This document shows, piece after piece, positions 4,987-64,000 of a stretch of DNA of 64,000 nucleotides. The stretch covers positions 27,527 through 91,526 of the forward strand of contig JAHJEV010000004.1 of the NCBI GenBank assembly GCA_018825365.1, in the 5' to 3' direction. The number at the start of each line of letters is the position of its first letter. Positions within the stretch are counted from its first letter, which is position 1. The translations under genes and the position numbers were made by a program. The notes under the pieces are model-generated. The model did not search any database and was not told where the DNA came from. It saw only the letters and a list, made by a program, of their open reading frames with translations. The stretch comes from Patescibacteria group bacterium (GTDB lineage: Bacteria; Patescibacteriota; WWE3; UBA101185; UBA10185).

Positions 4987-5287
4987 TAAGTAGATTGTAT
5001 ATTATTCATTACCTACATACAATAGTTTCTTTATGTTTCCATTACAACACATACATTACTATCATTACTCTATATTCTTCTCAATCGTTACCTACATTGC
5101 AACTTCTGAAGGTAGTGCCTTCACAATTCTTCCGTTCTCACCTCGTTCAACTATTACCCTACTCTTCAAAGGCTCGGGAAGTTCTATTTTTATTTTAAAA
5201 GGAATCCTTTTCTTGGAATTTCCGGGGAATAAATATTTCACTATGCTCAGTGATTCCCTATAGATAAGGACATGAGGTGATTATATC

Positions 5288-5653
5288 TTATATCGAATCG
5301 GAAATATGTACCTTACCAAAATAACCTAGTTTAAGAAGTTTCAAATCCTTTGTAATGAAAATGTCACAATTTGCCTCAGACGCAGAGTGTAATTGGACGT
5401 TGTCCTCAAAATCCGATGTGGGTCCCAAAACTGATTTTTTGGCTATAGAGGATGTGTAGTCTACAAAATTAAATGTGTTAAACATTTCTAATAAGCTGCT
5501 ATTGGGAACAAAACGTTTATATATGTATATCCAAATTTCTATGGAAATAGTTGACACAAATAAATCTTCTCCGTCCAACGCTTTTGCCAAGAGTTTATCT
5601 CTGCTTTCCATGAAATCTATATAAATATTTGCGTCAAGAAACACTTTGGCCAT
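5288..5653 (-). CDS. PIN-domain protein (VapC-like toxin)
   Basis: N-terminal 'KVFLDANIYIDF' acidic PIN signature; 121 aa; overlaps the upstream antitoxin-like ORF by 20 nt. Confidence 0.7.
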   Translation of the reverse strand: MAKVFLDANIYIDFMESRDKLLAKALDGEDLFVSTISIEIWIYIYKRFVPNSSLLEMFNTFNFVDYTSSIAKKSVLGPTSDFEDNVQLHSASEANCDIFITKDLKLLKLGYFGKVHISDSI

Positions 5654-50100: not shown

Positions 50101-53100
50101 GTCGGCATCGGGACGACGGGTCCCGTGGCCAATTTACACATTGTTGGCTCAACCTTGTTTGGCTCCTTAGCCGTGGCCGACAAGGTCACTGGCGGAAACA
50201 TCGGTACCGCCGCTGCCACCGTTGATATATATACCAGCTTCAATCTGTCCCAGGCCACCGCGGGCCAAACCATTACCCTGCCCGATCCAACTAATACCAC
50301 GGCCGGCAGATTAGTCTATCTTTCCAATACCGGTTCGGCCACCTTTACTTTTTACAACTCCACGGTTAAAGTCGGCGATACCACCGCGGCCATTTGGGAC
50401 AGTGACTCCTGGAACCTGGCCGGCGGCGGCGGTTTGGCTCAAGGCACGGTTGATAATGCTACTTTAAGATGGAACAACTCAACCACTCAGTGGGTGGAAA
50501 ATACCAGTATTCTTACCGCGTTAAATCCAACAGCCGTAGGTTCTTATGGGTTGTCAGTTGGCAATTCTGGCGCTGTTGCCGGAACCGGATATGGCATTTA
50601 CACCACAAAGACCGGGGGCTCAACTACTAATGTAGCTTTGTATGCATCGGCATCCGGTGGCGCTGCAAATTATGCTGCCATTTTTGATTCAGGAAATGTC
50701 GGCATCGGGACAACTGCTCCCACATATAAACTGGATACCCAACTGGCAAGTAATGGAATAATTGCAAGATTTTCAGCAACAGATGCAAGTTTACTTATAG
50801 GAGCAGATGCTAGTGGTGGATATATACAACCAGGAACAGTAGATAAAACTACAATATATCAATCAAACGGCACATCAGCAGTAGTAACTGTAGACGCTAA
50901 CAAAGTAGGTATAGGAACGACTGCTCCATCAACAAAATTAGATGTGAATGGCACGATTACCAGCCAGACCGGAGCTGTAAACTCCAATGTGGCTGACTCT
51001 TCAACCGCCATCGCCTTTTTACTGGCATCCAATAATACTTTATCCACCCAGGGCGCCAAACTCCTTTCTTTGAAAAACGCCTCAACGGAAAAGTTTTACA
51101 TTGACAAAGACGGCAATCTCTATACGGCCGGCACCATTCTGGCCGGCAATGGCACCGGCATACTGATGATTAACAAATCCGGCGGCACGGTCGCTAAGCG
51201 CAGTTTAGTCGTCATTGACATCACCACCAACTCCGCCTTTGCCACTACCACCACCGCCTACGCCAAATCCAGTTTTGGCGTGATTACCGGCGTCGGGCTT
51301 GGAGTAGCCTATGACGCCGATGGCGACGGCGCGTGCGACGCCGAAGATGTCTGCATGGTGGCGGTTGGCGGCGAAGTGGAAGTTCTTCTGACCAACGCGT
51401 CTACCGCCGTTAAAGGCGACTATATTTATACCTCGGCCACGGCCGGTTCGGGCGTGTCCAGCGCCAAGCAGTTTGACGGCCTTATCGGCATCGTCAGCAA
51501 CACGGCCGGCTCTGCTTCCGGCTATGGCAAAATGATTTTTAAAGTCCAGCCCCAGGTCTCCGGCTCGCAGTTTTTAACTAAAGAAGACACAGCTTTGGCT
51601 AATGGCGGTTATGTGGAGATAGTCCACAATCAGAGCACTAATGATGTGGTGACCAATGGGTGGGTGTACAACACAACCACCAGTAAATGGGAAATAGTTG
51701 GTGATAGTGGGGATGCAATTGGTGGAACAGTAACATATAAAGATGGATATACCATCCATACATTTACCAGTAGCGGAACCTTCACGCCAGTTAGTGCTGG
51801 AAATGTTGAAGTTTATGCTTGGGGTGGTGGCGCAGGTGGTGGGTATAACGCCGGTGCCGGAGGTGGTGGAGGAGCAGCTAATGGTACAGTAACAGTTGCG
51901 GCATCTTCTTATGTTGTTACTGTTGGTGGCGGTGGATTATCTAGGGCACCGGATGCTGGTCCTGGACCAGCAGTTGTTGGTGGAGGTGGTTTAGCAGGTA
52001 ATCTTGGTTATGGTGGTCAAGGCGGAGGTTTATCTGGAATTTTTATAGGATCTTCTTCTCAAGTCAATGCTCGCTTAATGGCTGGTGGGGGCGGTGGTGG
52101 TGCTTACGAAGGTGCTAATGGCGGTGCTGGAGGCGGCACTAATGGCGTTGCTGGTGGCAACGGTTTAGATGCTGGTGGTGGTGGAGGAACACAATCTGCT
52201 GGTGGCACATCTGTTTCCTCTACCGGTTCTGCGCTACAGGGAGGTTCTTCTGGTGCTCAAGGTGATGGTGGCGGTAGCGGTGGTGGAGGTGGTGGTTATT
52301 GGGGTGGAGGAGCTGGTAGTAATACCAATCCTGGTTCTGCTGGTGGTGGCGGTGCAGGATTTTATAACCCAACTTATGCTTCCTCTGTAACATTAACTGC
52401 AGGTTCTGGAACAACACCTGGTGATTCAGGTAATTCTTTAAGAGGTTCTGCTGGTAATGGAGGTGCGGCTGGTAATAATGCAGGTACAGCCGGCATTGTC
52501 ATTGTTAGATATCTGACGAATTCGTTGAGCGCTTTCAAAATCACCCAGCAGGATACCAATACGGTTCGGCTTTATAATTATTCCGGCGCGACGCAATATG
52601 TCAGGTTAAATGTTATTCCTTCCGGCGGCGGCGGTTCGCCGGGCGGCGGCGCCGGGCTCTACACCAATAACAACGCCTCCGTTGCCAACGGCTCCTACAT
52701 CGACGTGGCGCACAACCAGAACACCGCCGACCTGGTAAGCAACGGGTGGATTTACAATACAGCTACTAGCAAATGGGAACAGATTGACAAAGATAGTAGT
52801 GATGCCACTGGCGGAACAATAACATATAGCGGTGGATATACCATTCATACTTTTACAAGTAGCGGAACATTCACACCACCAAATAATGGAAATGTTGAAT
52901 ATCTTGTGGTTGGAGGAGGAGGAGGAGGTCATACGGGAGGTGGTGGGGCGGGTGGATATTTGACTGGAACAGATTCATTATCCGCAACCTCTTACAATGT
53001 TATAGTTGGAGCAACAGTGGGCGCATATACAACTGGAAACAATAGTTCATTCAATGGCAAAATAGCTTCTGGCGGAGGTCTTGGAGGAAATGTAGGTGAA

Positions 53101-56076
53101 GCAGGGGGAGATGGAGGTTCGGGTGGTGGTGCGGGTGCGGGTGGTGGTGTGTATGCACATGGTCACGCAACTGGTACTCCGAGTAGCCAAGGTCATGATG
53201 GGGGCATAAACTATAATAGCTCTCCTTATCCTGCTGGTGGTGGCGGTGGCGCAGATACAGTAGGTTCAGATGGAACGTCTAATGGAGGTGGAAATGGGGG
53301 CGCAGGACTAACATCAAGTATTAGTGGAAGTTCAGTAGGTTATGCAGGTGGGGGTGGGGGTTATAGTCAAGATACAAAACCTCCAGGAACTGCGTCCCAT
53401 GGAGGAGGAGCAGGAGTAGGGCAAACGGGCACTCCCAATGCTGGCACACCTAATACTGGCGGAGGCGGCGGCGGCGGACAGAATGGTGGTGCAGGTGGTT
53501 CCGGCATTGTCATTGTCAGATATTTAACCAATTCTTTAAGTGCTTTCAAAATCACCCAGCTCGATACCAACACGGTACGGCTCTACAACTACTCCGGTAC
53601 TACTCAAAACTTACGGCTTGATGTCATTACCGGAGGATTGGGCCGAAACGCCGGCACCGTGTCTTTGGCGCCGGCTGCCGCCGACGTTGACAGCCAGGAT
53701 AACTCCAACAGCATCTGGATCAACAAAACCGGAGCCGGGGGCTTGCTGCTCAAGCTCCAATCTGCGGCTGCGGATGTTCTCACTTTGGCCAAGAGCGGCC
53801 TGATGACCTTGGCCGGCAGTTTCGTTCCCGCTACCAACGATACCTATGATTTGGGTTCGGACGCCTTGAGATGGCAGTCTGCCTACATCGGGCCCGGGAC
53901 AGTGCACATTGGCACCTCCACCGCTGATGAGTACACTATGTCATATGACACAACTAACAACCGCTTGGGTTTCAATGTCAACGGTTCGGGCGATGCGGAA
54001 ATCGTCTTTGATTCCTCCGGCAACGTCGGCATCGGGACGACGGGACCAGAATCTAAACTACATGTTATGTTTAATAGCGCAGGTACAATCACAGGTTTTT
54101 CCGACGCATTAATTGTTGAAAACAACGCGAATGCTTATTTGAACCTCATTGGTTCAACTTCTGGAATAAAGGCGATTACTTTTGGAGACCCAACTGCCGG
54201 TGTGGTAGATGGTCAAATCACCTACAATGCCCTCGCTACTGACATGCTTGACTTTCGTGTTGCTGGTAATTCTGTAAAGATGGTGATTGACTCTTCCGGC
54301 AACGTCGGCATCGGGACGACGACGCCTGCAGCTAGAACACACATAGTCAATACTACAGCTACCGCACTAAGGTTGGATGTAAATGATGCATTTTCTTATG
54401 CGGAGTTTTATACTGGTGCAACATATCGTGGAAATATAACATATCAGGCGGCAAGTACTGCTTTGCGATTGACTGCTGGAACAGCACAGAACTTACTCTT
54501 AACTGCTGCGGATAGTAATGATAAAGGGATATTTATAAAAACAGACGGCAATGTCGGCATCGGTACAACAGCTCCGAAGAACAAGCTAGATGTATTTGGT
54601 GCTATGGCTATAGGGTCATACGCAGGTGTGAATACGGCACCGAGCAACGGGATGATAATATCTGGCAACGTCGGCATCGGGACGACGGGGCCGGGGGGCA
54701 AGTTAAGCATTTATGATACGTCAGCCGGTGCTAACGATAGGGTACAGATAGTCAGCGATCTAAGTTCGAGCGTGGACCAGTTGGTACTCCATCATTATGG
54801 GACGGCAGGAACTCAGCTTGCGTCATTTTGGAGAGGCAGGGGCACTTTCTCTTCACCAACAGCTTTATCGAATGGTGATGCAATCGGTCAATTTAATTTC
54901 GTAGGATATGACACAAGTAACACGGCTCAGACAGGGGCAGGATTCGGGGCAGTAGTAGATGCGGCTCCAGGAGCTGGAAGCGTTCCTATTGCAATAAGAT
55001 TTTTAACAGGTACCACAGGAGGTGGGACGGAACGGGTCAGAATTGATAGTACCGGCAACGTCGGCATCGGGACGACGGGGCCAGTGAGCTCGCTAGAAAT
55101 AAAAGGTCCGAACACTGTAAATACTCCGCGCTTAACGCTCAACCAACTTTATAACGCAGGAGCGTCGGCGTGGGGTATTGATTTCACTCGCACCTACGAC
55201 ACCGGTGGTGACGGACAAAACGCGGGGTACATTCGTATTGGCCGTGCCGGGGGAACCTCAAATTCGGGTATGTTTTTTGGGCTTGGTGACCAAGGTACAG
55301 TCGCAGATAGAATGACTATTCTTCCAAGCGGCAACGTCGGCATCGGGACGACAGGTCCAGGGTATACATTAACAGTTGCAGGTACTGCCTGGGTTACAAG
55401 CGGCGCCTGGTCTGGTTCGGATGTTAGATGGAAAGAAAATATTCAGCCTATAGCAGGAGCCTTGGACAAAGTACTGCAACTCTCCGGAGTTTTCTATAAC
55501 TGGAGAAAAGACGAGTTTCCAGAAAATAAATTTGATGACAAAACTCACTTGGGGTTAATTGCTCAGGATGTAGAAAAAATTGTTCCCGAACTGGTAACCA
55601 CAGGACCAGACGGCTATAAAGGTCTTGATTATAATGGATTAGCGCCTCTTTTAATTGGGGCCGTACAGGAACAGCAGGGGCAAATCTCGCTGCTGTCAGG
55701 ACAGCTGGTAAGCTTATCAAATATCGTCCGTGTTGAAGGCTCGTGCGTTACCGGTGACACATTGCTTCCCATCCGCCGCCGACGCAAAAGTCTAAGTGGT
55801 CTGGAATCCGAGGACGACAATGGGTTATTTGATTACCTGTTGATCCGTATCGATGAAATACTACCTGGCGATGAAGTCTCGTCCTTAAATGAGTTTACAG
55901 GCTCTCTAGAATGGCATAAAATAAATGCCTCGATGGATATGGATATTAAGGAAGTTTTTGAGCTTACAACCAAATCAGGAAAAGTAATCAGGACAACAGC
56001 CAAGCATCCTTACTTAACTTTGTTGGAAGATAAATTGGAAGGTAACCCTGTAGTTAGTAAAGAAGGAATAAAATAA
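44182..56076 (+). CDS. giant (3964 aa) cell-surface protein: N-terminal HTH, single TM, tail-fibre-like 'GNVGIGTTxP' repeat array, tandem Gly-rich modules, peptidase-S74 intramolecular chaperone domain, C-terminal split-intein N-fragment
   Basis: Single uninterrupted ORF. HTH 'LKVSQAAKILGISPSSLRRFEKEERI' (aa 22-50). TM 'RVFALISTLVLVSTILIFPV' (aa ~184-204). Many 'SGNVGIGTT(A/N/G)P..KL(D/E)V' repeats. S74 motif 'SDVRWKENIQPIAGALDKVLQLSGVFYNWRKDE...LIAQDVEKIVPELV'. Final 110 aa 'CVTGDTLL...VIRTTAKHPYLT...' are intein blocks A and B. Confidence 0.85.
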   Translation: MSLPAQENAQRNNDTKYDFQRFGSLKVSQAAKILGISPSSLRRFEKEERITSERAPGNNYRTYRLDLVNRLKAELQNDGTNKQLLVKRKKLRKTQKYSPEKINTGLIKTKPGIIPSPAPVFNMDIPSAPYHVKPYVPVSPSLEKLDESIKTKGDKEENLNLPEVVPSYEKIVTYKPAVAKLSLGRVFALISTLVLVSTILIFPVNFSKVLSDFRSKVQNGLVNAKNLSNVLSTLNFGSKKLAEKKSTAPSELLANVLAASARVSNYVYNINIPVFFKKPATFEDTLTAEQLATFNAAITTTNVTFKGTGLINNLLGIDVVTKTTLERDLDIDGQITSTGMGDTVISKGIITGPMLNSNITYSGKFNFSGTIALKGTTITSTAAELNQLAGLSYESGGIFYGDGTGFYQDTSYLFWDSTNKNLGIGTSSPTATLEIISSGTGTSTSTLWTKNSTGTTGLFVQNSGNVGVGTTAPATALEIGGSGNLRIGGLTALSGVYTDADKTLVSTPPTSGTLGYWQRNGTYVSPATITDNVGIGTTAPSALLEVNGTSWLRGGTAPTSGLFVNSSGNVGIGTTNPGAKLDVRGGLNTGTNGTEFTVSDTGIVTAATSFLAPTFDTATGVAMNIGTATQTALTLGRAGATTTINGSGLTVGPTAWTATPTISGLITATSGLTANGALTANSTFTLGDDGDLGSIDTSDWNITTTGAMTGISGIANDGAYTQSGTSANTFTGTSTFSNATYSAFFTGGNVGIGTTEPGSKLEVAGTFTVSGSNLTTLGGNLTVTGTTWTATPTISGLVTMTSGFDSNAASTVSSLTIDANTGNALTISGTGFTTDITLQNGETIDNDTDGTILLTAPTTKTSGNLYAGTSGTGTITSGLINGQTISSAANFTGTGIFASTLTASNGLTLTTGALNLTSTSGTVNLATTFNQVGATTINTSGTANTTIGNTAGGTITIGAASGSDLALNDAQWSITGAGAANFTGLTSSGTITFSGLTASRGVFTATGGQLATSATSQYLIDSLSDETGSGALVFSNSPAITTPTITTSATVPLLIGGTAANSTLTLRSTSGTGITGADILFQTGNNGATEAMRILNSGNVGIGTTNPQYALEVGGSGNVRIGGLSASMGVYTDANKQLTSTPPTSGGLGYWTRSGTTLWPTANTDNLTTLGNIGIGTTSPTSSLHLNASAPSGIIFNLAYGASTVIDNDLTGAKFNLDDGTVVATNQNITGLEVKLPTVTNTHTTGTKTLKGFYVNFGTGSGLNQTGVGGTTTYNALHVDLPALTQTAGTLNINGLYVNSPSSITTGGTASGLYINSTGVNAGALYGVNVSNITAGAGTERAINIGSGWDSVLAVNGTVIISGSGVTQTAGGGTGFSTYTKGDVLYSDAANSLAKLGIGTVNQVLSVTAGGVPGWGTMDGTSCVNCLISNPTGDQIIAPTGQGTTGLVVRQTSTSSPTDDIFAVTNSAGDNKYFYVDYAGVVNIPSIGSSSGDQLTIEPGTDKYALKLLGTNVAANSLQLIDSYNTSGTIFDLDYPAARTLSGALVGMDIDLSTNLTVTNQSVTAQKITLPTFTNTNTTGTKSYLGMQIAPPGAGGVNQNGIGGTSEYILADLTMPALTQTAGTLNAYGVKIITPSSITTGGTAYGVNINASGVGAGTLYGMNVSNIAAGAGTERAINIGTGWDYGIYSETTGNSYFAGSVGIGTTNPTAALDVAGGIKATTFNGNIISTGTGTLTLGASKTLTVNDSTVLNTNTVTFGGTEILTLTAGKNVTFADSFTTSGSNSLTLTTTGSTNTTLPTTGTLATLAGIETFSSKTFSGNTYFPGSGIWDAGGNIGIGTTAPKNKLDVFGAMAIGSYAGVNTAPSNGMIISGNVGIGTTGPGATLHVQKGAGVTAVSDSNAVFQLTSDGNASNMWFNIKTGANGGTNGTFGFAEAGTIKGGILWDVANASFNLSSDVNTTATSRQVIIKAGNVGIGTTGPVANLHIVGSTLFGSLAVADKVTGGNIGTAAATVDIYTSFNLSQATAGQTITLPDPTNTTAGRLVYLSNTGSATFTFYNSTVKVGDTTAAIWDSDSWNLAGGGGLAQGTVDNATLRWNNSTTQWVENTSILTALNPTAVGSYGLSVGNSGAVAGTGYGIYTTKTGGSTTNVALYASASGGAANYAAIFDSGNVGIGTTAPTYKLDTQLASNGIIARFSATDASLLIGADASGGYIQPGTVDKTTIYQSNGTSAVVTVDANKVGIGTTAPSTKLDVNGTITSQTGAVNSNVADSSTAIAFLLASNNTLSTQGAKLLSLKNASTEKFYIDKDGNLYTAGTILAGNGTGILMINKSGGTVAKRSLVVIDITTNSAFATTTTAYAKSSFGVITGVGLGVAYDADGDGACDAEDVCMVAVGGEVEVLLTNASTAVKGDYIYTSATAGSGVSSAKQFDGLIGIVSNTAGSASGYGKMIFKVQPQVSGSQFLTKEDTALANGGYVEIVHNQSTNDVVTNGWVYNTTTSKWEIVGDSGDAIGGTVTYKDGYTIHTFTSSGTFTPVSAGNVEVYAWGGGAGGGYNAGAGGGGGAANGTVTVAASSYVVTVGGGGLSRAPDAGPGPAVVGGGGLAGNLGYGGQGGGLSGIFIGSSSQVNARLMAGGGGGGAYEGANGGAGGGTNGVAGGNGLDAGGGGGTQSAGGTSVSSTGSALQGGSSGAQGDGGGSGGGGGGYWGGGAGSNTNPGSAGGGGAGFYNPTYASSVTLTAGSGTTPGDSGNSLRGSAGNGGAAGNNAGTAGIVIVRYLTNSLSAFKITQQDTNTVRLYNYSGATQYVRLNVIPSGGGGSPGGGAGLYTNNNASVANGSYIDVAHNQNTADLVSNGWIYNTATSKWEQIDKDSSDATGGTITYSGGYTIHTFTSSGTFTPPNNGNVEYLVVGGGGGGHTGGGGAGGYLTGTDSLSATSYNVIVGATVGAYTTGNNSSFNGKIASGGGLGGNVGEAGGDGGSGGGAGAGGGVYAHGHATGTPSSQGHDGGINYNSSPYPAGGGGGADTVGSDGTSNGGGNGGAGLTSSISGSSVGYAGGGGGYSQDTKPPGTASHGGGAGVGQTGTPNAGTPNTGGGGGGGQNGGAGGSGIVIVRYLTNSLSAFKITQLDTNTVRLYNYSGTTQNLRLDVITGGLGRNAGTVSLAPAAADVDSQDNSNSIWINKTGAGGLLLKLQSAAADVLTLAKSGLMTLAGSFVPATNDTYDLGSDALRWQSAYIGPGTVHIGTSTADEYTMSYDTTNNRLGFNVNGSGDAEIVFDSSGNVGIGTTGPESKLHVMFNSAGTITGFSDALIVENNANAYLNLIGSTSGIKAITFGDPTAGVVDGQITYNALATDMLDFRVAGNSVKMVIDSSGNVGIGTTTPAARTHIVNTTATALRLDVNDAFSYAEFYTGATYRGNITYQAASTALRLTAGTAQNLLLTAADSNDKGIFIKTDGNVGIGTTAPKNKLDVFGAMAIGSYAGVNTAPSNGMIISGNVGIGTTGPGGKLSIYDTSAGANDRVQIVSDLSSSVDQLVLHHYGTAGTQLASFWRGRGTFSSPTALSNGDAIGQFNFVGYDTSNTAQTGAGFGAVVDAAPGAGSVPIAIRFLTGTTGGGTERVRIDSTGNVGIGTTGPVSSLEIKGPNTVNTPRLTLNQLYNAGASAWGIDFTRTYDTGGDGQNAGYIRIGRAGGTSNSGMFFGLGDQGTVADRMTILPSGNVGIGTTGPGYTLTVAGTAWVTSGAWSGSDVRWKENIQPIAGALDKVLQLSGVFYNWRKDEFPENKFDDKTHLGLIAQDVEKIVPELVTTGPDGYKGLDYNGLAPLLIGAVQEQQGQISLLSGQLVSLSNIVRVEGSCVTGDTLLPIRRRRKSLSGLESEDDNGLFDYLLIRIDEILPGDEVSSLNEFTGSLEWHKINASMDMDIKEVFELTTKSGKVIRTTAKHPYLTLLEDKLEGNPVVSKEGIK
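49705..49824 (+). repeat. ~120-nt perfect intragenic direct repeat, copy 1 (copy 2 at 54571-54690)
   Basis: Identical stretch 'gctccgaagaacaagctagatgtatttggtgctatggctatagggtcatacgcaggtgtgaatacggcaccgagcaacgggatgataatatctggcaacgtcggcatcgggacgacggg' at both sites. Confidence 0.8.
54571..54690 (+). repeat. ~120-nt perfect intragenic direct repeat, copy 2
   Basis: See copy 1; 4.87 kb apart in the same reading frame, encoding 'APKNKLDVFGAMAIGSYAGVNTAPSNGMIISGNVGIGTTGPG'. Confidence 0.8.
55417..55743 (+). other. peptidase S74 / intramolecular chaperone auto-processing domain (sub-feature of the giant CDS)
   Basis: 'SDVRWKENI...FYNWRKDEFPENKFDDKTHLGLIAQDVEKIVPELV' matches the tail-spike/endosialidase C-terminal chaperone domain (SDxRxK Ser-Lys dyad region). 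Confidence 0.7.
55744..56073 (+). other. split-intein N-terminal fragment (Int-N; Hint blocks A and B), DnaE-split-intein-like
   Basis: Block A 'CVTGDTLL' at the extein/intein junction (…VEGS|C); block B 'GKVIRTTAKHPYLT', close to the cyanobacterial DnaE Int-N block B 'GSVIRATSDHRFLT' as recalled; ORF stops 20 aa later, as in natural Int-N. Confidence 0.75.
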
Positions 56077-56201
56077 ATGAGTAAATTTTTAAACAGTTTT
56101 TTAACTAAATATCTCACGATTACAAGAGGAAGTGCCAAAATTTCCCAAACTAGTGAGATTGGGACCTCGCCAATCCGTGAGATGGGGGAGACTAAAAATC
56201 T

Positions 56202-56780
56202 ATGAAAATTAACCAAAATATGAAAAAATTCCAAAAAACTCTGGAATTAAAAGGCAAAACGGCTGTCCTCATTGATTGGGCTAACGTTCACGGATGGGCA
56301 GAATTGGGTCACTCTGAAGTTAATCTAAAAAAGTTGTTTAAATACTTAAGAGGGTACAAAAAGATTAAAGCAATAAATCTATATTTCGGTAAGGATACTC
56401 ATCCAAAATCAAAAAAGTTTTTAGGTGAAGCGAAGAAAATAGGTTTTAAGGTAATCACAAAACCAGTTAAATATATCAAGGTGGCTGTATTCCAAAATAA
56501 ACCAATTTTCCGACGAAAGTGCGACTTTGATATGGAAATTTGTATTGATATTCACAAACATTTAAGCCAAAATTATGATAGTTTCATTTTCTTTTCTGGC
56601 GATGGGGACTTTGAGCCTCTTTATAGACTATTAATCGAAAGACATAAACAGGTTATTGTAATATATGGACAAGGCCATCTGGGAAGGGAGATTTACTCAA
56701 TAAAACAGGGGTTATATAAACTCGATATTAATAAGTTGGGGTCAGTAAAAAATGACCCCCCGGTTTCCCGGAGGGCGTGA
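56202..56780 (+). CDS. NYN-domain (LabA/YacP-like) protein
   Basis: 'KTAVLIDWANVHG' N-terminal acidic motif and 'FFSGDGDFEPL' NYN signature; 192 aa. Confidence 0.7.
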   Translation: MKINQNMKKFQKTLELKGKTAVLIDWANVHGWAELGHSEVNLKKLFKYLRGYKKIKAINLYFGKDTHPKSKKFLGEAKKIGFKVITKPVKYIKVAVFQNKPIFRRKCDFDMEICIDIHKHLSQNYDSFIFFSGDGDFEPLYRLLIERHKQVIVIYGQGHLGREIYSIKQGLYKLDINKLGSVKNDPPVSRRA

Positions 56781-56906
56781 TTAAAAGTATGTTAACAAAA
56801 CTAGCCAGAAAAGTCAAATTAGGAAAGATCGGCAAAGACCGCTTAACTCAGGAATTTATACCTGGCGATCAGCGATTCGAGCCGATTAGTAGGTAAAGGA
56901 TAACGT

Positions 56907-58232
56907 ATGTCTAAATTTTTATCAAATATTTTTAATTTAATGAAGGCCCATAAACCTGGGGTCCCCGACCTCGCTAAATCGCCTATAGGTGGTGATGTAC
57001 CAACTACACCGAACAAGCAAGACGGACATCTCACCTCCGCTCAGGGCAAGCCCATAATGGACTCTTTTGCCTGCCCTTACTGCGCAAGCAAACACTTTGT
57101 CAGAAGAGGTTTTAGACAGAAAAAAATGGAAAAAGTCCAGCTTTATCTTTGCCTGGAGTGCAACAAAACCTTTACCCAGCATATAACCCGCGGCAAACAC
57201 TATCCTTTACCGGTTGTTTTCGATGCTATCAGCACTTATAATCTTGGGTATTCTCTGGAAGAAACCTGCAGGATAATTAATAGCCGCACCGCCGGCGTTA
57301 CGTCAGCAGTTTCCGAGGCAGGTCCCGCACTTTCGGCATCGACTTTATCAAATTGGCTTAATGAAACATCAGAGCTCTGCCGATTTGAGCGCATGCGCGA
57401 ATATGCCCTGAAAAAATACTCGCCAGAAAATATGGTTGTTACCGCAACTCTCGCCCACCGACAGCTTTACCGCTACCGCTTCCATAGAGCCAAATGCGAA
57501 CTTATCATCACTGAAGATTTTAAACACCACCGCTTCGGGCCTTTGCAGGAATTTCTAGAAATGGTGCCCAGTGAGTGTCCGCACCAATATTTCCAAGAAG
57601 GCTTAAGGGCCAGTGAAGTGCCTTTGACCTTTTCCAAAACCCAAATGATCGTCAGAAGCAAGCAAAACTACGCCACTGCGCTTGCCACCTTTATCCTGCA
57701 GTCGGTCAAGGATAGAAAACTGCGCCATGACGCTATACAAAAATTTATGCTGGCCAACGACACGGTAACTGTCGCCACTGAAGTACCGGTTTACTTAACC
57801 CACGATGATTTGGAGCATTTGCAGACACAGCTAGGGTTTGAAATATATGACTCCCCCATTAAAGGAGCCCGTTCGGCCGCCTTGGAAGTGTGTACCGACC
57901 TGCCAAAATTAATCACTGGCCACATTGACATACTGCAAATAAGAAACGGCCAGATTCATATTTTGGATTTTAAACCTGACGCCGCAAAAGAACAGCCGAT
58001 TGAACAGCTGACTTTGTATGCTATGGCGCTGTCCAGACTTACCGGTTTAAGATTATTCGAGTTTAAATGCGCTTGGTTTGATGAAAAAGACTATTTTGAA
58101 TTTTATCCATTACATGTTTTACTTAAAACAAAGAAAAGTCAGAGACGCCGAAAAGTCTATACCATGGAAGGAGTTTATAAAATTAATCAGGATGAAAGAA
58201 AGGTAACAGAAATTAAACCTATACACCTATGA
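56907..58232 (+). CDS. Zn-ribbon + PD-(D/E)xK nuclease-fold protein (candidate free-standing homing endonuclease)
   Basis: N-terminal 'CPYCASKH...CLECNKTF' C4 ribbon; C-terminal 'ITGHIDILQIRNGQIHILDFKPD' (D...D/ExK-like core); locally higher GC than the genome. Confidence 0.55.
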   Translation: MSKFLSNIFNLMKAHKPGVPDLAKSPIGGDVPTTPNKQDGHLTSAQGKPIMDSFACPYCASKHFVRRGFRQKKMEKVQLYLCLECNKTFTQHITRGKHYPLPVVFDAISTYNLGYSLEETCRIINSRTAGVTSAVSEAGPALSASTLSNWLNETSELCRFERMREYALKKYSPENMVVTATLAHRQLYRYRFHRAKCELIITEDFKHHRFGPLQEFLEMVPSECPHQYFQEGLRASEVPLTFSKTQMIVRSKQNYATALATFILQSVKDRKLRHDAIQKFMLANDTVTVATEVPVYLTHDDLEHLQTQLGFEIYDSPIKGARSAALEVCTDLPKLITGHIDILQIRNGQIHILDFKPDAAKEQPIEQLTLYAMALSRLTGLRLFEFKCAWFDEKDYFEFYPLHVLLKTKKSQRRRKVYTMEGVYKINQDERKVTEIKPIHL

Positions 58233-58645
58233 CCTATCAAAAATCATACAGCCCTAAAAGACCGGTGAAAAGCTTCCAGGATTTGGAAGTGTACCAAAAG
58301 TTATTGGCTCTCTCAGTTGCTGTAGCCAAAAGAGTCAAATCCGAAAAAGTGACTGCCATTGCCTTAGATTTGCCGGTTAAGATAGCCACAGCTCACTCAT
58401 CGAGATTTGGTGATCAGACAAAGGCAATTTACGCTCTGGATGAAGTAATGCTTAATTGCAATCTGCTTGTTGTTTATTTGGAACAATACCGGGATATTGA
58501 AAATCCGTCTGCTAAAGAGGCAGAGAAGATTGAATCTGAATTTTTTGAGGAGCAGATTAAAAGTCTTTTGTCAGTCAGAATGAAAATTTTACATTTACAA
58601 AATTCGTGGAAGAAATTCGCCAAAGAATATGCCAAACAAAAATAA
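58229..58645 (+). CDS. four-helix-bundle protein (23S rRNA intervening-sequence protein family, TIGR02436-like)
   Basis: 'FQDLEVYQKLLALSVAVAKRV...' matches the four-helix-bundle/IVS protein N-terminus (FxDLxVWQKA); 138 aa; 4-nt overlap with upstream gene. Confidence 0.7.
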   Translation: MTYQKSYSPKRPVKSFQDLEVYQKLLALSVAVAKRVKSEKVTAIALDLPVKIATAHSSRFGDQTKAIYALDEVMLNCNLLVVYLEQYRDIENPSAKEAEKIESEFFEEQIKSLLSVRMKILHLQNSWKKFAKEYAKQK

Positions 58646-58883
58646 CAAGAAAAATTTAATAGACACCCACCCTGTAGGCAGGATCTTTAATATTGGCAAG
58701 GAAAAGGCCGTCTGGAAAAGAGTAACCGAGCTAAAACCCGGGGTAAAAATTGCTGTCGAAAAAGATGGAAACCTCGCTTGGGATGAAATTGTTGAAATAA
58801 AATCCGTCGGCCTCGAAAGAGTCTGGGACATTGAAGTTGAAGGCACGCATAACTTTGTCGGCAACGGTATCATCGCCCACAAT
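58629..58883 (+). other. Int-C portion (blocks F/G) of the split intein
   Basis: 'VWDIEVEGTHNFVGNGIIAHN' similar to the DnaE Int-C '[22 protein letters not shown]' as recalled; splice junction at 58883/58884. Confidence 0.75.
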
Positions 58884-60638
58884 ACTTTTCTCAACGATCT
58901 TGTTGGGATAGGAACTACAAATCCAGCAGATACAACCTTAAACTTATCAAGTACAAGCCCGTCTAGTATAAATATGCTGGATGTTGACGGAGTAATAAGA
59001 ATCAACCAATCAGTAGTCACCGACACAGTTTCAAACACCTTATACAACAACTCGGATGTATTAATGTGGAATGATAAACAAATATCAGCCGGACCTAACC
59101 TGTACTCGATAAACGGATCCGTTTCCAACGATGAGTATTTATCGCTACAACACAAACAGGGTACAACTGACATACTGGTCACAGCATGGGTAAACGACGG
59201 AACAAAATGGGTAAAGATTGCAAATCTAGGAGACCCGTCAGATACAACCGGGGATTACTACTTCACTACACCGGACAGCGATACGGTCCGTTTACACAAT
59301 AAATCCGGAAACTCACAGTCATTAAAACTAGACATATTCGTATCCGGAGCTAATGTTGCAGAGTGGTACACACTCGATAACACATTTGCTGACACTAGCA
59401 CAGCTTCAGATGTTTCAGATATCTCAGACACTTCGGATACTTCAGATGTTATAACTACCGGTACATCCCCAAGCACTGAAATTACCCTACCAGGTTCATC
59501 ACCTGATACCTCAATCACCGAGTCTACGTCCGTACCTAATACTGAAATTACTAAAATTGAATCCGGTGATGTTGTTGCACTATCTACAAATATTGACGAT
59601 TACGGAATGCCGATGATTAGAAAAACAAGCACCTATTACGACTCGAGTTTATTTGGAGTAGTTACTACAAGTGCCAGCCACGAAATGGGAATACAAAGAG
59701 ATGGAAGAAAACTTGTTGCCCTGTCAGGTAGAGTCCCTGTAAAGATAGATCCCGCTTCTTCAGATATTAAACCCGGAGACTTCATTACAGCATCATCTCT
59801 TGAGGGACATGCAACCAAAGCTGAAATGCCGGGAAGAGTCATTGGTACAGCGCTGCAGTCGTGGAATAAAAATTCCGGTGACAAAAAGGTACTGGTTTTA
59901 GTCAATCCAACATACAACTCACCTACCGCCCAAGCACTCACATCAGCTTTATCATCTGACAGCTCTACATCTGGAGATATTTCAAATGAAATGCTAACTC
60001 TAAGAGATCAGATAGTTGCCCTATCTAACAATCTTAAGGACACACTATCTTCCCTTGGGATGACATTAACTAAGGATGAGGTTTCAGAAAAAGACACGCT
60101 GGCTATTAACTCAGACATGCACATACTTGGGGATGTGACACTTACTAACCTGACCGTAACTGGCGATATTCAGGCAGGAATGGTCACAATTGACACACTT
60201 TCTAACTCAGTAGACGTGCTTGGATCTTCCTGCTATAACTCAGAAACTAATACAATCAATGACACATTATGTAATGATCAGGCTTTACATCTTCAAAAAT
60301 CTGGCTCCGGTATGATTGACATGTTCGACGGAAAGATAGTTGCCAAACCAAACGGAACATTGGTTATAGAAAACTCCATAGAAACCAAGAAACTTGTCAT
60401 CAACACATCTGATGTAGAATCCGCAGCTGCAGGAAAAACAACCATCAAAGCCGGTGACACCAGTATCACAATAGATACGAGCGCTGTAAATGACAAATCC
60501 ATAATCATGATAACTCCGGAAAGACCGGCTACTGTCGGAAGCAAATACAAGCAGGAAGGAAAGTTTGAAATAGTCTTGAAGGAGGCTCAGGCGGAGGATC
60601 TTGATATAAGCTGGATAATTGTGGATAGAAAAGATTAA
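58629..60638 (+). CDS. split-intein C-terminal fragment (Int-C, 85 aa) fused to the C-terminal extein of the tail-fibre-like surface protein (669 aa total)
   Basis: 'RVWDIEVEGTHNFVGNGIIAHN|TFLNDLVGIGTTNP...' carries intein blocks F and G ending in HN with +1 Thr; extein resumes the GIGTT repeat type of the upstream giant protein; S/T/D-rich linker; C-terminal globular region. Confidence 0.8.
   Translation: MPNKNNKKNLIDTHPVGRIFNIGKEKAVWKRVTELKPGVKIAVEKDGNLAWDEIVEIKSVGLERVWDIEVEGTHNFVGNGIIAHNTFLNDLVGIGTTNPADTTLNLSSTSPSSINMLDVDGVIRINQSVVTDTVSNTLYNNSDVLMWNDKQISAGPNLYSINGSVSNDEYLSLQHKQGTTDILVTAWVNDGTKWVKIANLGDPSDTTGDYYFTTPDSDTVRLHNKSGNSQSLKLDIFVSGANVAEWYTLDNTFADTSTASDVSDISDTSDTSDVITTGTSPSTEITLPGSSPDTSITESTSVPNTEITKIESGDVVALSTNIDDYGMPMIRKTSTYYDSSLFGVVTTSASHEMGIQRDGRKLVALSGRVPVKIDPASSDIKPGDFITASSLEGHATKAEMPGRVIGTALQSWNKNSGDKKVLVLVNPTYNSPTAQALTSALSSDSSTSGDISNEMLTLRDQIVALSNNLKDTLSSLGMTLTKDEVSEKDTLAINSDMHILGDVTLTNLTVTGDIQAGMVTIDTLSNSVDVLGSSCYNSETNTINDTLCNDQALHLQKSGSGMIDMFDGKIVAKPNGTLVIENSIETKKLVINTSDVESAAAGKTTIKAGDTSITIDTSAVNDKSIIMITPERPATVGSKYKQEGKFEIVLKEAQAEDLDISWIIVDRKD
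60486..60638 (+). repeat. 3'-terminal ~150 nt of the Int-C/extein gene (master copy of a thrice-repeated segment)
   Basis: Sequence 'taaatgacaaatccataatcatgataactccggaaagaccggctactgtcggaagcaaatacaagcaggaaggaaagtttgaaata...ctggataattgtggatagaaaagattaa' recurs at 62003-62152 and partly at 63579-63600. Confidence 0.8.
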
Positions 60639-60736
60639 ACTACTCAAAAAGCCACTGAATAGAAAACTTGGTTTTTGGTCTACTTTACTACTCATCACTT
60701 ATATTTAAGGTTGAGATAGTAAAATCTCCCGCAGAC

Positions 60737-61930
60737 TTACGTTGGATTATTTTCCGAGAGTATGCCAAATCTTCCCAAAATTAGCGGTAATTTTTCCATG
60801 TTGATAACTTCAACCGGAAGATGATATAGGGAAGTGAAAGCCTTAGATTTAGACGAACTCTTTGACCATTTTATCTCAAAAGCTTGTATTTCCCCTTTTG
60901 AATTTTTTACCACCAAGTCAACCTCGCTATTGTTTCTCGAACGCCAATAATAAAGCACACTTTGTTTGCCTAACAAAAGATTCCTCTTAGCAAATTCCGC
61001 AATAACCCAGTTTTCCCAAAGTTTACCGATATCTCCTCTATTGTTATTTTCCTGCATCTCACCAATCAGGGCATTCCTTACTCCTGTATCCCAAAAATAG
61101 ATTTTATTGCTTTTGGAAATTTCCTTTCGGGGATTGGTACTATACGCAGGTAGTTGAAAAATAACAAAAGTTTCTTCCAACAGATCTAGATATTTTACGA
61201 CTGTTTGTCTGGAAATACCCAAACTTCCAGCAATTTCATTAATCGAAACAACTGACCCAACTTGATAAGCTAAAAGAAGCAGAAGCTTTCTTAAGGTCCC
61301 CGGGCTTTTTACTAAACCAACTTGCAGGATATCTTTTAGAAGATAGTCAGAAATTAAATTATTAAGATACTCCCGTTTATCTAAAGTTTTAACTGCCTCA
61401 GGATAACTACCATAAATAAGACTGGTAAATAAAATTGAATCTGTTTGATCCCGAAAATTCCCTTTATCCAATCTCAATTCCGGCTGGTACCAGCTTTGGG
61501 AGGAAATTATCTCCGAAAAAGTTAATGGCGGCAAAAATAATTTAATATTTCTGCCGGTCAAAGTTTCTGCAGATTGATCAAGTAAATTCAAGCTAGACGA
61601 TCCTGACAGAATTATTTTGGTTGTAACCCCGAAATCGTACCATCCTTTCACTACTCTACTAATTTCGGGTACCCTCTGCGCCTCATCTACAATTAGAATT
61701 TCGGGGGAACCCAAAAGAGATAGGGAGGATTTCGGATCCAAGGGCACGGACGACAACAGCCTTTGTCTGTCAACCTCAATATCTAAATTAAGATAAGTAG
61801 TTCTTTCCAGCTTGAAGGCATTTTTCAAAAGCGTGGTTTTTCCAACCTGCCTAGCACCCAACAGCAACAGAACTTTTCCCGAGTCAAACCACTTCTTTAA
61901 ATTATCTTCTGCTAAGCGACTTATGTACAT
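60737..61930 (-). CDS. AAA+ ATPase (AAA_14 + DUF4143-type 'ATP-binding protein')
   Basis: Walker A 'LLLGARQVGKTTLL', Walker B 'ILIVDEAQ'; 397 aa. Confidence 0.8.
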   Translation of the reverse strand: MYISRLAEDNLKKWFDSGKVLLLLGARQVGKTTLLKNAFKLERTTYLNLDIEVDRQRLLSSVPLDPKSSLSLLGSPEILIVDEAQRVPEISRVVKGWYDFGVTTKIILSGSSSLNLLDQSAETLTGRNIKLFLPPLTFSEIISSQSWYQPELRLDKGNFRDQTDSILFTSLIYGSYPEAVKTLDKREYLNNLISDYLLKDILQVGLVKSPGTLRKLLLLLAYQVGSVVSINEIAGSLGISRQTVVKYLDLLEETFVIFQLPAYSTNPRKEISKSNKIYFWDTGVRNALIGEMQENNNRGDIGKLWENWVIAEFAKRNLLLGKQSVLYYWRSRNNSEVDLVVKNSKGEIQAFEIKWSKSSSKSKAFTSLYHLPVEVINMEKLPLILGRFGILSENNPT

Positions 61931-62002
61931 ATTTTGATAACTGCAGTTTACAATATATGTATCTATTTTGTCAAGTGTATGTAATCATAATCAGGATCTA
62001 TA

Positions 62003-62152
62003 AATGACACGTCCATAATCATGATAACTCCGGAAAGACCGGCTACTGTCGGAAGCAAATACAAGCAGGAAGGAAAGTTTGAAATAATCTTAAAAGAGGC
62101 TCAAACGGAGGATCTTGATATAAGCTGGATAATTGTGGATAGAAAAGATTAG
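62003..62152 (+). repeat. orphan near-identical copy of the last ~50 codons of the 58629..60638 gene
   Basis: Few substitutions relative to 60486-60638; in-frame translation preserved ('...MITPERPATVGSKYKQEGKFEIILKEAQTEDLDISWIIVDRKD*'). Confidence 0.8.
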
Positions 62153-62209
62153 AAAACTTAAGAGAAAATATATTAAAAGCCAAACCAGCGTTCCCCCGAT
62201 TAGTCTAAC

Positions 62210-63472
62210 TTAGAACTGCAGGTTATTCCCACTCACCAAACTATAAAATGGAAGAAAGTAAACACGAGTGCCACCTATTGTGGTTTCTTTGCTTTCACCA
62301 AGGTGAATAATATAACCCGCTTTTGGCTTATATTTCGCCAGAAAATTTCTAAACGAACGCGGAATTTCTATTTTTGAAATCTTCGCGTACTTAGCCTCCA
62401 TTGGTAACACATCCAGCCCTTTTTCTAAAACAAAATCCACTTCAGCCTGATCCCGTGTTCGCCAGAAGTGTATCTGAGTTGGTGAAAGCCCTAAACGCTC
62501 TCTCAGTAAATTAAAAACAACGTTTTCAAACAAGTGTCCGCCCAAATGGGCGGGAATCTCAGATAAGCCAAAAAGGCCCAGGAGCCAGTTTCGAAGCCCT
62601 GTATCATAAAAATAATAGGTGGGAGTCTTAGTAATTTCTTTTCGGGTGTTACGATAATATGGGGTAACTTTCTTGATGATGAAAGTCTGCTCTAAGTAGT
62701 ATAGGTAATGCTTAATGGTTCTTTCGTTAAGATCAACGGTTGAGGAAAGTTCAGCTATATTGACAAGACTTCCGATTTGGGAAGCAACTATTTTAAGAAG
62801 CTTGGTAAATGCATCTGTTTTCTCCAAGTTCAAAAGATCACGAATGTCTCGTTCGACATAGCTTCTGTAAATCTCCTGCATTTCTTCTTGTTTTGAAGTA
62901 ACTGAATCAGCAAGAACTACCCGCGGGTATCCTCCAAAAACCATGTATTCGGAAAAAAGACGCTCCGTCTTACCCTTTTCCAGCTCAAAAAAGTCTTGTA
63001 ATTTACCCTCATATAAATAATCGGTTCTAAAATTGACAAACTCCTCAAAGCTTATGGGCTCAATGCTAAACAGCCGCTTTCTGCCGGCCATCGACTCCAG
63101 AATCTTTGCTTTAAGCTCTAAACTGCCAGAGCCAGAAATAATGAACTTAAGAGGTAAGTTCATATCAAAAATACCTTTTAAAAAAAGCCCGACATTTTCC
63201 TTGCGTTGTATTTCATCAATGAAAACAAACGCCTTTTCTTTCCCTACTGCAAGCTCAATATGAGATAGCAATGTCGCCTGAGAGGTGAACTTAACCTTGT
63301 CCTCATCGTTATCCAAGCTCAACCAAACTGTTTTTTTGCCTTCTTCTTCTAGCTTCTTCTTCAAAATACGCATGAGGTATGTCTTACCAACCTGCCTCGG
63401 ACCAATAAGAATAGTCATTTGATCTGACCCCAGATGTTCTTCCAACCTAGTAAGTATTTTCCTCTTTATCAT
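62210..63472 (-). CDS. AAA+ ATPase (AAA_14 + DUF4143-type), paralogue of 60737..61930
   Basis: Walker A 'ILIGPRQVGKTYLM', Walker B 'FVFIDEIQ'; 420 aa. Confidence 0.8.
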   Translation of the reverse strand: MIKRKILTRLEEHLGSDQMTILIGPRQVGKTYLMRILKKKLEEEGKKTVWLSLDNDEDKVKFTSQATLLSHIELAVGKEKAFVFIDEIQRKENVGLFLKGIFDMNLPLKFIISGSGSLELKAKILESMAGRKRLFSIEPISFEEFVNFRTDYLYEGKLQDFFELEKGKTERLFSEYMVFGGYPRVVLADSVTSKQEEMQEIYRSYVERDIRDLLNLEKTDAFTKLLKIVASQIGSLVNIAELSSTVDLNERTIKHYLYYLEQTFIIKKVTPYYRNTRKEITKTPTYYFYDTGLRNWLLGLFGLSEIPAHLGGHLFENVVFNLLRERLGLSPTQIHFWRTRDQAEVDFVLEKGLDVLPMEAKYAKISKIEIPRSFRNFLAKYKPKAGYIIHLGESKETTIGGTRVYFLPFYSLVSGNNLQF

Positions 63473-63578
63473 ATATTACTATTTTAGTACCTTATTTATG
63501 GTAGTCAAGTACTAGAAAGGTCGCCCACTTTGGGATCTGGCAAAGTCTTTCCTGAGAATCTTGGCATAAACTGAGTAA

Positions 63579-63600
63579 TTGCGGATAGAAAAGATTAAGA
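63579..63600 (+). repeat. third, short degenerate copy of the gene 3' end ('AATTGCGGATAGAAAAGATTAAG')
   Basis: Matches 'AATTGTGGATAGAAAAGATTAA' at 60617-60638 and 62131-62152. Confidence 0.6.
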
Positions 63601-63875
63601 AACTCAAAGTGCTGTTTATTCCCCTGCCTCATAGACACACTCCCCCAAATTGTCAGGTTATAGGGATTAACAGTCCCTGTAATTGGAACATTACGGGGAC
63701 TTTAAATAACATTGGAAGTCGTAAATATTCCGACCTGCGATTATGTTTTTGCATTATGAAAGACAGTCTATTACCTAGAAACGGTTATATAAAAAAACTA
63801 GAATCATATCCTCAACCAAATAATCGTTTCATCTATCGACTCATTATGATGCGGTAATGCATATTGGTTAAAATC

Positions 63876-64000
63876 CTAAAGCGAGGAAACGATCTTCTTA
63901 AATAACTTCATCTTTTGTGTATCCTCCGGAGAAAATAAAAAGGGCTCCAATTTATGATAAAAACTTTCCGGAACTCCCTCAACTTTTAATTTCTCGGAAG
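63876..64000 (-). CDS. possible 3' end of a third minus-strand gene continuing beyond the window
   Basis: Open frame from the window edge to a TAG at 63876-63878; same relative position after the third repeat copy as the two AAA+ genes; cannot be verified. Confidence 0.2.
   Translation of the reverse strand, partial: SEKLKVEGVPESFYHKLEPFLFSPEDTQKMKLFKKIVSSL

Follow-up and report, generated by a model that had tools for sequence, protein, structure and literature searches.

Downstream of a surface-protein gene (58629..60638, plus strand; the target gene in the following) in a 64,000-nt stretch of the Patescibacteria contig JAHJEV010000004.1, copies of the 3' end of this gene alternate with genes encoding DUF4143 ATPases of the defence candidate family PDC-S01. 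We refer to the whole stretch as the window; the array extends past its end and was read there on the matching contigs L001 and L086. The array is a small, fast-changing defence island, bounded on one side by the stop codon of the surface-protein gene and on the other by the rplJ promoter with its leader, and we consider it probable that defence cassettes were added repeatedly after the target gene by homology-anchored illegitimate recombination, the tail copies being its scars. The evidence comprises the repeats themselves, the different cassettes present at the same site in relatives, one relative with an empty site, the exchange of an AbiE cassette and a junction at which a fragment of the AbiEii toxin gene is joined to the gene tail within a short microhomology.

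From the stop codon of the target gene to the rplJ leader, the island measures about 4.7 kb, and its only genes are two of the PDC-S01 family, ATPase-1 (60737..61930, minus strand, 397 aa) and ATPase-2 (62210..63472, minus strand, 420 aa), together with an AbiEii/AbiEi pair. An initial annotation, made from the letters of the window alone, had suggested that an open frame running off the window end might be a third ATPase gene. This frame is instead the 3' end of AbiEii (63876..64000, minus strand, with the last 125 nt inside the window), which on L001 and L086 is followed by AbiEi, the L10 leader and rplJ/rplL. PADLOC recognized AbiEii (E 2e-46) and AbiEi (E 2e-36) as adjacent genes on L001 (8243..9597), which is the arrangement of nucleotidyltransferase (AbiEii) and antitoxin (AbiEi) genes expected of an AbiE type IV toxin-antitoxin pair. 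No integrase or transposase was detected among the called genes of the island and its immediate flanks and no methyltransferase in the island, the cargo consisting of PDC-S01 and AbiE, and in GC content the island is not distinguishable from its surroundings. The array recurs at 99.9% identity in independent assemblies, namely JBDRTJ010000016.1 (a metagenome-assembled genome, MAG, at NCBI), ERZ27247117 (ENA) and Ga0180009_10007773 (JGI), and further in three sets of NCBI protein accessions. Since these assemblies agree and the copies differ mutually by 7-18%, an assembly artefact, against which the initial annotation had cautioned, is excluded.

A repeat search followed by alignment identified a direct repeat of 164 nt with 93% identity and a spacing of 1514 nt (60484-60647 and 61998-62161), comprising the last 155 nt of the target gene (51 codons and the stop) and a further 9 nt, with the reading frame kept. 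The earlier observation of some 150 nt of the gene recurring in frame about 1.5 kb downstream was therefore correct. Copy 1 (60484..60647, plus strand; repeat family D1) is the functional 3' end of the target gene, and copy 2 (61998..62161, plus strand) is an orphan tail with stop codons immediately upstream. A 43-codon open reading frame (ORF) starting from an internal ATG is kept in copy 2; it is annotated as a 43-aa gene in the MAG contig JBDRTJ010000016.1 and is also retained in contig L102, introduced below. A third copy, reported initially as a 22-nt remnant at 63579-63600, does exist, but its 22-nt core lies at 63576-63597 and the full copy is a degraded tail of 55 nt (63554..63608, plus strand, 82%) with an in-frame TGA. 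The 22-nt pattern TAATTGTGGATAGAAAAGATTA is exact in copies 1 and 2 and has one mismatch in copy 3, with 0 occurrences expected from 100 shuffles. A search for a fourth tail copy between AbiEi and the rplJ promoter and in the 268-nt spacer that follows copy 3 gave nothing above shuffled controls. This spacer (63609-63875, from copy 3 to the AbiEii stop) has no detectable kinship with the gene tail or any fetched locus and holds only a doubtful ORF of 92 codons (63579..63857). The 89-nt spacer between copy 1 and the ATPase-1 stop (60648..60736, no strand assigned), which forms the 3' flank of the first cassette, showed no similarity to the sequence after copy 2 or after copy 3 when aligned with them.

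The copies share one boundary and differ in the other. In all tail copies, the right end is fixed at 3-15 nt past the stop, at the passage from the conserved gene to the variable island; the left ends vary, with positions of -155, -129, about -78 and about -48 when counted from the stop. The roughly 10 differences between copies 1 and 2 are clustered, and half of them are synonymous or conservative, a pattern that is suggestive of recombination between functional alleles rather than of steady decay. Tail copies are more alike inside one genome than across genomes. The structure prediction that had been proposed for a C-terminal domain of about 150 aa was run with AlphaFold2 (AF2) on the last 300 aa of the target protein and gave confident values of the predicted local distance difference test (pLDDT 74-88) only for residues 230-300, suggesting that the last ~70 residues form a compact small beta domain. 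The repeat spans most of this predicted domain.

The left boundary of copy 2 carries a vestige of an earlier neighbour. The 19 nt at 61981..61999 (plus strand; GTAATCATAATCAGGATCT), whose minus-strand codons read DPDYDY and which are found nowhere else in the window, are fused to the left end of the copy. In L102, a contig from a strain with an ATPase-2 94% identical to that of the window, a frameshifted remnant of about 200 nt, corresponding to the AbiEii 3' end of the type found in the related locus L090, is located to the right of ATPase-2 and its promoter motif and is fused directly to a full-length tail copy (166 nt, 90%). The last 19 nt of this remnant are exactly the 19 nt that precede copy 2 in the window, and the crossover lies within a microhomology of about 10 nt, CT(T)GTNAATGA, which is common to AbiEii (L090) and the target gene. 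Since the AbiEii vestige is joined inside this microhomology, the joint appears to be illegitimate and not the product of an att site and an integrase. The sequences thus indicate that copy 2 begins on its left with a joint between the target gene at -155 and the inner part of a gene that once lay downstream; an att core or the end of an ATPase cassette is not what forms this boundary. Likewise, the last tail copy of L089 (tail C) is preceded by the promoter motif and an AbiEii remnant. The counterpart of copy 3 in L102 is full length at 166 nt, and copy 3 of the window looks like a deletion derivative of such a longer copy.

The same site in related genomes

Orthologous loci of the target gene were found only three times in the searched collections (L085, L089 and L090), with target proteins of 54-61% aa identity; the C-terminal 300 aa matched one protein among 5.8 billion plus two further metagenome loci. 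The comparison with relatives recommended in the initial annotation did reveal an empty site. In L085, one tail is present, nothing lies between the target stop and the rplJ promoter, and the L10 leader (Rfam, 73.6 bits) is found 30 nt past the stop, in a distant relative with a target protein of 54-60% identity. The other two loci are occupied. L089 carries the gene end (tail A), a DUF4143 ATPase gene on the plus strand, tail B (93%), an AbiE pair, tail C, a second AbiE pair and then rplJ, the flanking repeats measuring 132 nt and about 85 nt (tail C); the ATPase gene is in the orientation opposite to those of the window, and an AbiE pair is here flanked by tail copies as well. In L090, an ATPase gene (52% identity to ATPase-2) adjoins the stop of the orthologous gene and is followed by Fic, AbiE and rplJ, and no tail copies are present. 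The repeat-free island of L090 is thus comparable to the array, an observation that the initial annotation had itself named as refuting and that counts against an obligatory att scar.

The ribosomal protein L10 of the window genome is 62-64% identical to those of L089 and L090 (62% for L089), and these two share 70%. In contrast, the AbiE pairs proximal to rplJ in the window genome and in L089 are 84-87% identical in protein and 83.6% in DNA, and the DNA homology begins exactly at the AbiEii stop. Because the AbiE pairs are so much more alike than L10, this sequence comparison demonstrates a horizontal exchange of the AbiE cassette between the window lineage and L089. Taken together, the relatives show that cassettes move between distant genomes and land at one site, and that tail copies accompany some additions, not all; since an AbiE pair is flanked in L089, the tail copies are not specific to ATPases. 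The initial idea that foreign genes were added one after another at a single gene's 3' end, with the repeats as their traces, is hence upheld by the empty site of L085 and the other cassettes of L089 and L090.

The closest relative of ATPase-1 with many contigs, P0007 of Berkelbacteria (64% identity), is located on L091 (1-9191), a conjugative element with a coupling protein, a relaxase and pilins of a type IV secretion system; this single context is uninformative on insertion sites. Beside P0007, the element carries PIN and ribbon-helix-helix genes, AbiE and Fic, the same gene set as the chromosomal islands described here. Its AbiE pair is flanked by a 40-nt repeat (95%), of which a weak third copy lies 77 nt upstream of the ATPase gene, and this repeat may be a shared promoter or operator.

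Proposed route of cassette addition and its alternatives

How the recombination proceeded, in which order the events took place and what part selection played are inferred. Incoming DNA from related strains would carry the end of the conserved gene together with a different cassette. One crossover would then take place in the homologous conserved gene, serving as an anchor, and the other end would be closed illegitimately at a microhomology, through homology-facilitated illegitimate recombination (HFIR) or an equivalent duplication junction. Where the joint falls downstream of the stop, cassettes would simply be added or replaced, as in L090; where it falls inside the tail of the recipient, the incoming intact tail would be used and the old tail pushed downstream as an orphan. 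Selection would allow only products keeping the complete C-terminal beta domain to persist. The orphan tails would decay and be trimmed by deletions, and they could offer 50-160 nt of homology for the stacking, loss or exchange of cassettes.

Several points weigh against this route. A clean state preceding the insertion of either ATPase gene was not found in any close relative, and no close strain lacking only ATPase-1 or only ATPase-2 was found in the searched collections. The empty site of L085 belongs to a genome only 54-60% identical in the target protein. Moreover, the AbiEii vestige lies to the left of ATPase-2 in the window and to its right in L102, so that something more, for example unequal crossing-over, replacement or deletion, must have taken place and the order of events is not uniquely reconstructible. 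Finally, a staggered break driven by a nuclease would give a similar end product.

The joint between the interior of AbiEii and the interior of the target gene is also exactly what a tandem duplication makes. A purely local duplication of a segment reaching from within the gene tail into the AbiEii gene downstream of it, with later replacement of cassettes and gene conversion between the tails, would further agree with the close similarity of tail copies within one genome. A duplication of this kind, including a DUF4143 gene, exists elsewhere: in another Patescibacteria MAG (L010, 6910-10778), a DUF4143 ATPase gene and two small ORFs form a 1.46-kb tandem duplication with 93% identity, showing that such cassettes can be amplified locally. 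However, the two ATPases of the window are only 30% identical, the sequences to the right of the orphan and to the right of the upstream copy in L102 are unrelated, where a simple duplication predicts that they are the same, and cassettes have clearly been exchanged between distant genomes. We therefore regard a purely local origin as unlikely. A recent tandem duplication of a unit of tail and ATPase gene was considered separately and is ruled out by the 30% identity of the ATPases.

Alternatively, the PDC-S01 genes could be self-mobilising single-gene elements, the nuclease and ATPase of which introduce staggered breaks near gene ends and thereby create a long target-site duplication. This idea draws on a survey of 80 genome loci with DUF4143 genes from many phyla, 71 unrelated genomes being included in the repeat test, in which a direct repeat of at least 40 bits had to lie within 400 nt on both sides of a gene and other genes of 250-600 aa from the same loci served as controls. 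Flanking repeats were present around 11 of the 77 DUF4143 genes and around 3 of the 171 control genes (odds ratio 9.3, p = 2e-4). The repeats measure 33-140 nt with 77-100% identity, and the same arrangement recurs: about 14-275 nt separate the upstream copy from the ATG, most downstream copies start no more than about 13 nt after the stop (at most 310 nt), and the junctions are sharp. At least seven repeats are found at a neighbouring gene's stop codon or no further than 50 nt from it, and several include the terminator hairpin of that gene. The compactness of the cassettes, consisting of a promoter-like site, the ORF and less than 100 nt, and the conservation of the nuclease residues also speak for this idea. 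That long repeats flank DUF4143 genes roughly nine-fold more often than neighbouring genes, in many phyla, offers a testable lead on the spread of a very abundant uncharacterised family.

Against self-mobilisation, the AbiE pair of L089 has no nuclease and is flanked in the same way, the ATPase gene of L090 adjoins the target gene without any duplication, and at the junction of copy 2 the partner of the tail is an AbiEii fragment rather than the end of an ATPase cassette. The predicted fold resembles sensor ATPases of the STAND and Orc1 type rather than transposases, its similarity to TnsC being weak, and 86% of the DUF4143 genes lack such repeats. Hence, self-mobilisation is likewise an improbable explanation of the array, and we think it about equally improbable that DUF4143/PDC-S01 genes are primarily selfish single-gene mobile elements that insert by gene 3' ends and terminators through their own ATPase-nuclease, creating long target duplications, with the array representing two self-insertions. 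Homologues are carried by 210 plasmids; four of these regions were inspected and showed no flanking repeats, and one 'near' search for an empty site on plasmids found none. Among the titles and abstracts returned by a full-text literature search for DUF4143, COG1373 and PDC-S01, none tied the family to mobility.

Further arrays in which repeats and genes alternate (repeat-gene-repeat-gene-repeat) exist in the surveyed loci. In L063 (Patescibacteria, 68-2792), three repeat copies of about 90-110 nt flank a DUF4143 gene and an unannotated 254-aa ORF beside corA, and L024 (Treponema) and L013 (Flavobacteriaceae) each contain two tandem DUF4143 genes with repeats between them.

The initial annotation had read the repeats as attL/attR scars of integrative cassettes that target the 3' end of the gene, for which a site-specific recombinase would have to be encoded elsewhere. 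Direct repeats of a 3' end do flank the inserts, events have succeeded each other at one site, and the right boundary near the stop is fixed. Nevertheless, no recombinase is present among the called genes in or next to the island, and tRNA genes are not involved, none being the target in the 15 repeat-positive loci of the survey. The repeat lengths and left ends differ between events, the ATPase cassettes of the window and L089 are in opposite orientations, the L090 island is repeat-free, and an AbiE pair is flanked too. The targets in other genomes are mutually unrelated (PanE in L057, unknown ORFs and terminators). Considering also the microhomology junction with an AbiEii fragment, we find site-specific integration very improbable. 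The other initial suggestion, an orphan-module array for swapping the C-terminal tips of a surface protein akin to polymorphic toxins or contact-dependent inhibition systems, fits the giant surface protein as host, the tail fragments downstream and the 43-codon ORF in copy 2 and L102, but is highly improbable, as it is the conserved tip that was duplicated, with little difference among the copies, stop codons lie inside copy 3 and upstream of copy 2, no toxin domain or immunity gene is present, and the intervening genes encode PDC-S01 ATPases with a nuclease domain and have promoter-like sites of their own. An integron cassette array was rejected as well, given that there is no integrase, the repeats are coding sequence of the neighbouring gene and the cassettes have their own promoter-like sites (attC models were not run).

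ATPases, surface protein and borders of the island

Both ATPases consist of an AAA_14 P-loop domain followed by DUF4143 according to Pfam (E 1e-25 to 2e-43) and match PDC-S01 in PADLOC (E 1e-111 for ATPase-1 and 2e-91 for ATPase-2), a family characterised by an AAA+ ATPase, a winged helix-turn-helix (wHTH) and a PD-(D/E)XK nuclease; in ATPase-1, these parts are AAA_14, the wHTH and DUF4143. The initial description of an AAA+ ATPase gene on the minus strand after each tail copy holds for both genes, but the term paralogous is misleading at 30% identity, and judging from their sequences the two are not a recent tandem duplicate. The Walker A and B motifs and residues E336, D338, E352 and K354 of ATPase-1 are invariant in an alignment of 19 sequences. 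The AF2 model of ATPase-1 (pLDDT 83) has a Walker ATPase of Pyrococcus (2QEN) as its top fold match in the PDB, followed by AAA+ proteins of the STAND, Orc1/Cdc6, RFC and TnsC types, and no sequence relatives were found in the PDB. Among the PD-(D/E)XK nucleases, DUF4143 is listed as a family whose function is unknown (PMC3424549). One report ranks PDC-S01 fourth in frequency among the defence candidates of prokaryotes, with validation pending (PMC12988326), and a preprint describes a PDC-S01 representative that gave no protection against T4, T5 and T7 (bioRxiv 10.1101/2024.09.26.614923). A role of PDC-S01 in phage defence accordingly has candidate status only.

Each ATPase gene has a strong promoter-like site between its own ATG and the next tail copy. 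The putative promoter of ATPase-1 (61945..61974, minus strand, TTGACA-18-TAAACT) scored 10/12 in a consensus scan and overlaps a palindrome at 61926-61961 (inverted repeat I1) with 22-nt arms, TACATATTTTGATAACTGCAGT and ACTGCAGTTTACAATATATGTA, which stretches across the ATPase-1 start codon and the -10 region and could be an autoregulatory operator for the wHTH domain. The putative promoter of ATPase-2 (TTGACT-16-TAAAAT) (63481..63530, minus strand) is part of a non-coding motif of about 50 nt, TTTAGTACCTTATTTATRGTAGTCAAGTACTAGAAARGTCG (63486-63530), and is close to consensus on the minus strand, with the inverted repeat TAGTAC..GTACTA. This motif is about 95% conserved in L089 (about 5250-5298), L090 (6490-6545) and L102, in contrast to the L10 proteins of those genomes with only 62-70% identity, and in every case an AbiEii gene, or what remains of one, follows closely on its right; it may be a promoter or operator that travels.

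At the left border, the target gene (669 aa as called) encodes the C-terminal piece of a giant repeat-rich surface protein. Its N-terminus is the C-terminal half of an intein (Pfam Intein_splicing, residues 43-85; TIGR01443), and the repeats that follow, of the GIGTTNP type, continue the architecture of the upstream 3964-aa ORF (44182..56076), which itself ends with the N-terminal half of an intein right after a Peptidase_S74 domain. Between the two intein halves lie a NYN gene (56202..56780), a gene for a protein with a Zn-ribbon and a PD-(D/E)XK nuclease (56907..58232) and a gene for a helical protein of 138 aa (58229..58645). The region 44182-60638 thus has the appearance of a 'fractured gene' in which a split intein is combined with nuclease genes that stand free, and the orthologous ORF of L090 is unbroken for 1140 aa. 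The fixed right-hand border of the island is marked by the L10 leader (Rfam RF00557), which is located directly upstream of rplJ both in L086 (10764-10901, about +65376..65513 in window numbering) and in L085 (2668-2807).

Comparison with known insertion modes

Variable sets of PDC-S01, AbiE and Fic genes at one intergenic site with conserved borders liken the island to the defence hotspots found beside core genes, most of the described ones carrying elements with an integrase or lacking a target duplication. Here, a Patescibacteria genome that is reduced and has no integrase at the site nevertheless acquires defence genes and reshuffles them at one fixed place. A resemblance also exists to mitochondrial homing genes of fungi. 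In the atp6 gene of Allomyces, a homing endonuclease gene reportedly brought along a replacement 3' end, the old end being left as a downstream pseudogene, in work said to be by Paquin and colleagues in 1994. A nuclease gene near the 3' end of a gene, an intact replacement tail and a displaced orphan tail are common to both situations. In the free-standing homing cases of fungi, however, the ORF of the nuclease usually either continues the host gene in frame or has the same orientation, and the empty allele is documented to be cleaved, whereas the cassettes here have promoter-like sites of their own and occur in either orientation, and an AbiE pair behaves alike.

HFIR is said to have been described by de Vries and Wackernagel in 2002 for natural transformation, with experiments in Acinetobacter and Streptococcus. 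A one-sided homologous anchor with a microhomology joint at the other end is shared with the array, and HFIR explains why one boundary is fixed where the conserved gene ends, why the other one varies and why junctions lie inside unrelated genes. Different from the experimental cases, no pair of donor and recipient has been identified here.

The closest known counterpart is the "insertion with long target duplication" of restriction-modification (RM) genes (Furuta, Abe and Kobayashi 2010, PMC2853133; also Nobusato et al. 2000). The RM cases have repeats of >30 bp and variable length, often spanning stop or start codons, and no mobility genes; they include single-gene units such as the Type IV mcrA and come mostly from naturally competent species (PMC2853133). 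The flanking repeats of the DUF4143 survey correspond to this description as well. For our comparison we used the definition of Furuta and colleagues, with repeats of >30 bp, an insert of <20 kb without integrase, transposase or phage genes, and a single copy at the empty site. The repeats of the window (164 nt and 55 nt) and of L089 (132 nt and about 85 nt) are all longer than 30 bp, and the insert of about 4.7 kb contains no integrase, transposase or phage genes; its cargo is not RM. The array and the RM cases thus share a small defence-type unit, the lack of integrase and transposase, flanking repeats measuring tens to hundreds of bp, with a length that varies from event to event, which often span the stop of a neighbouring gene, and repeats that can support amplification. 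They differ in the cargo, which is PDC-S01 and AbiE here, in the Patescibacteria host, in the stacking of several events and in the empty site, which here comes only from a distant relative (L085, one tail), as well as in a junction made of a previous-cassette fragment and a microhomology, a sign of illegitimate recombination and not of a staggered cut. In conclusion, the array extends the long target duplication mode from RM systems to PDC-S01 and AbiE cassettes and is a new example, in lineage and cargo, of a mode of defence-gene insertion that is known as a phenomenon, with an unusually legible junction that makes part of its history readable from the scars.

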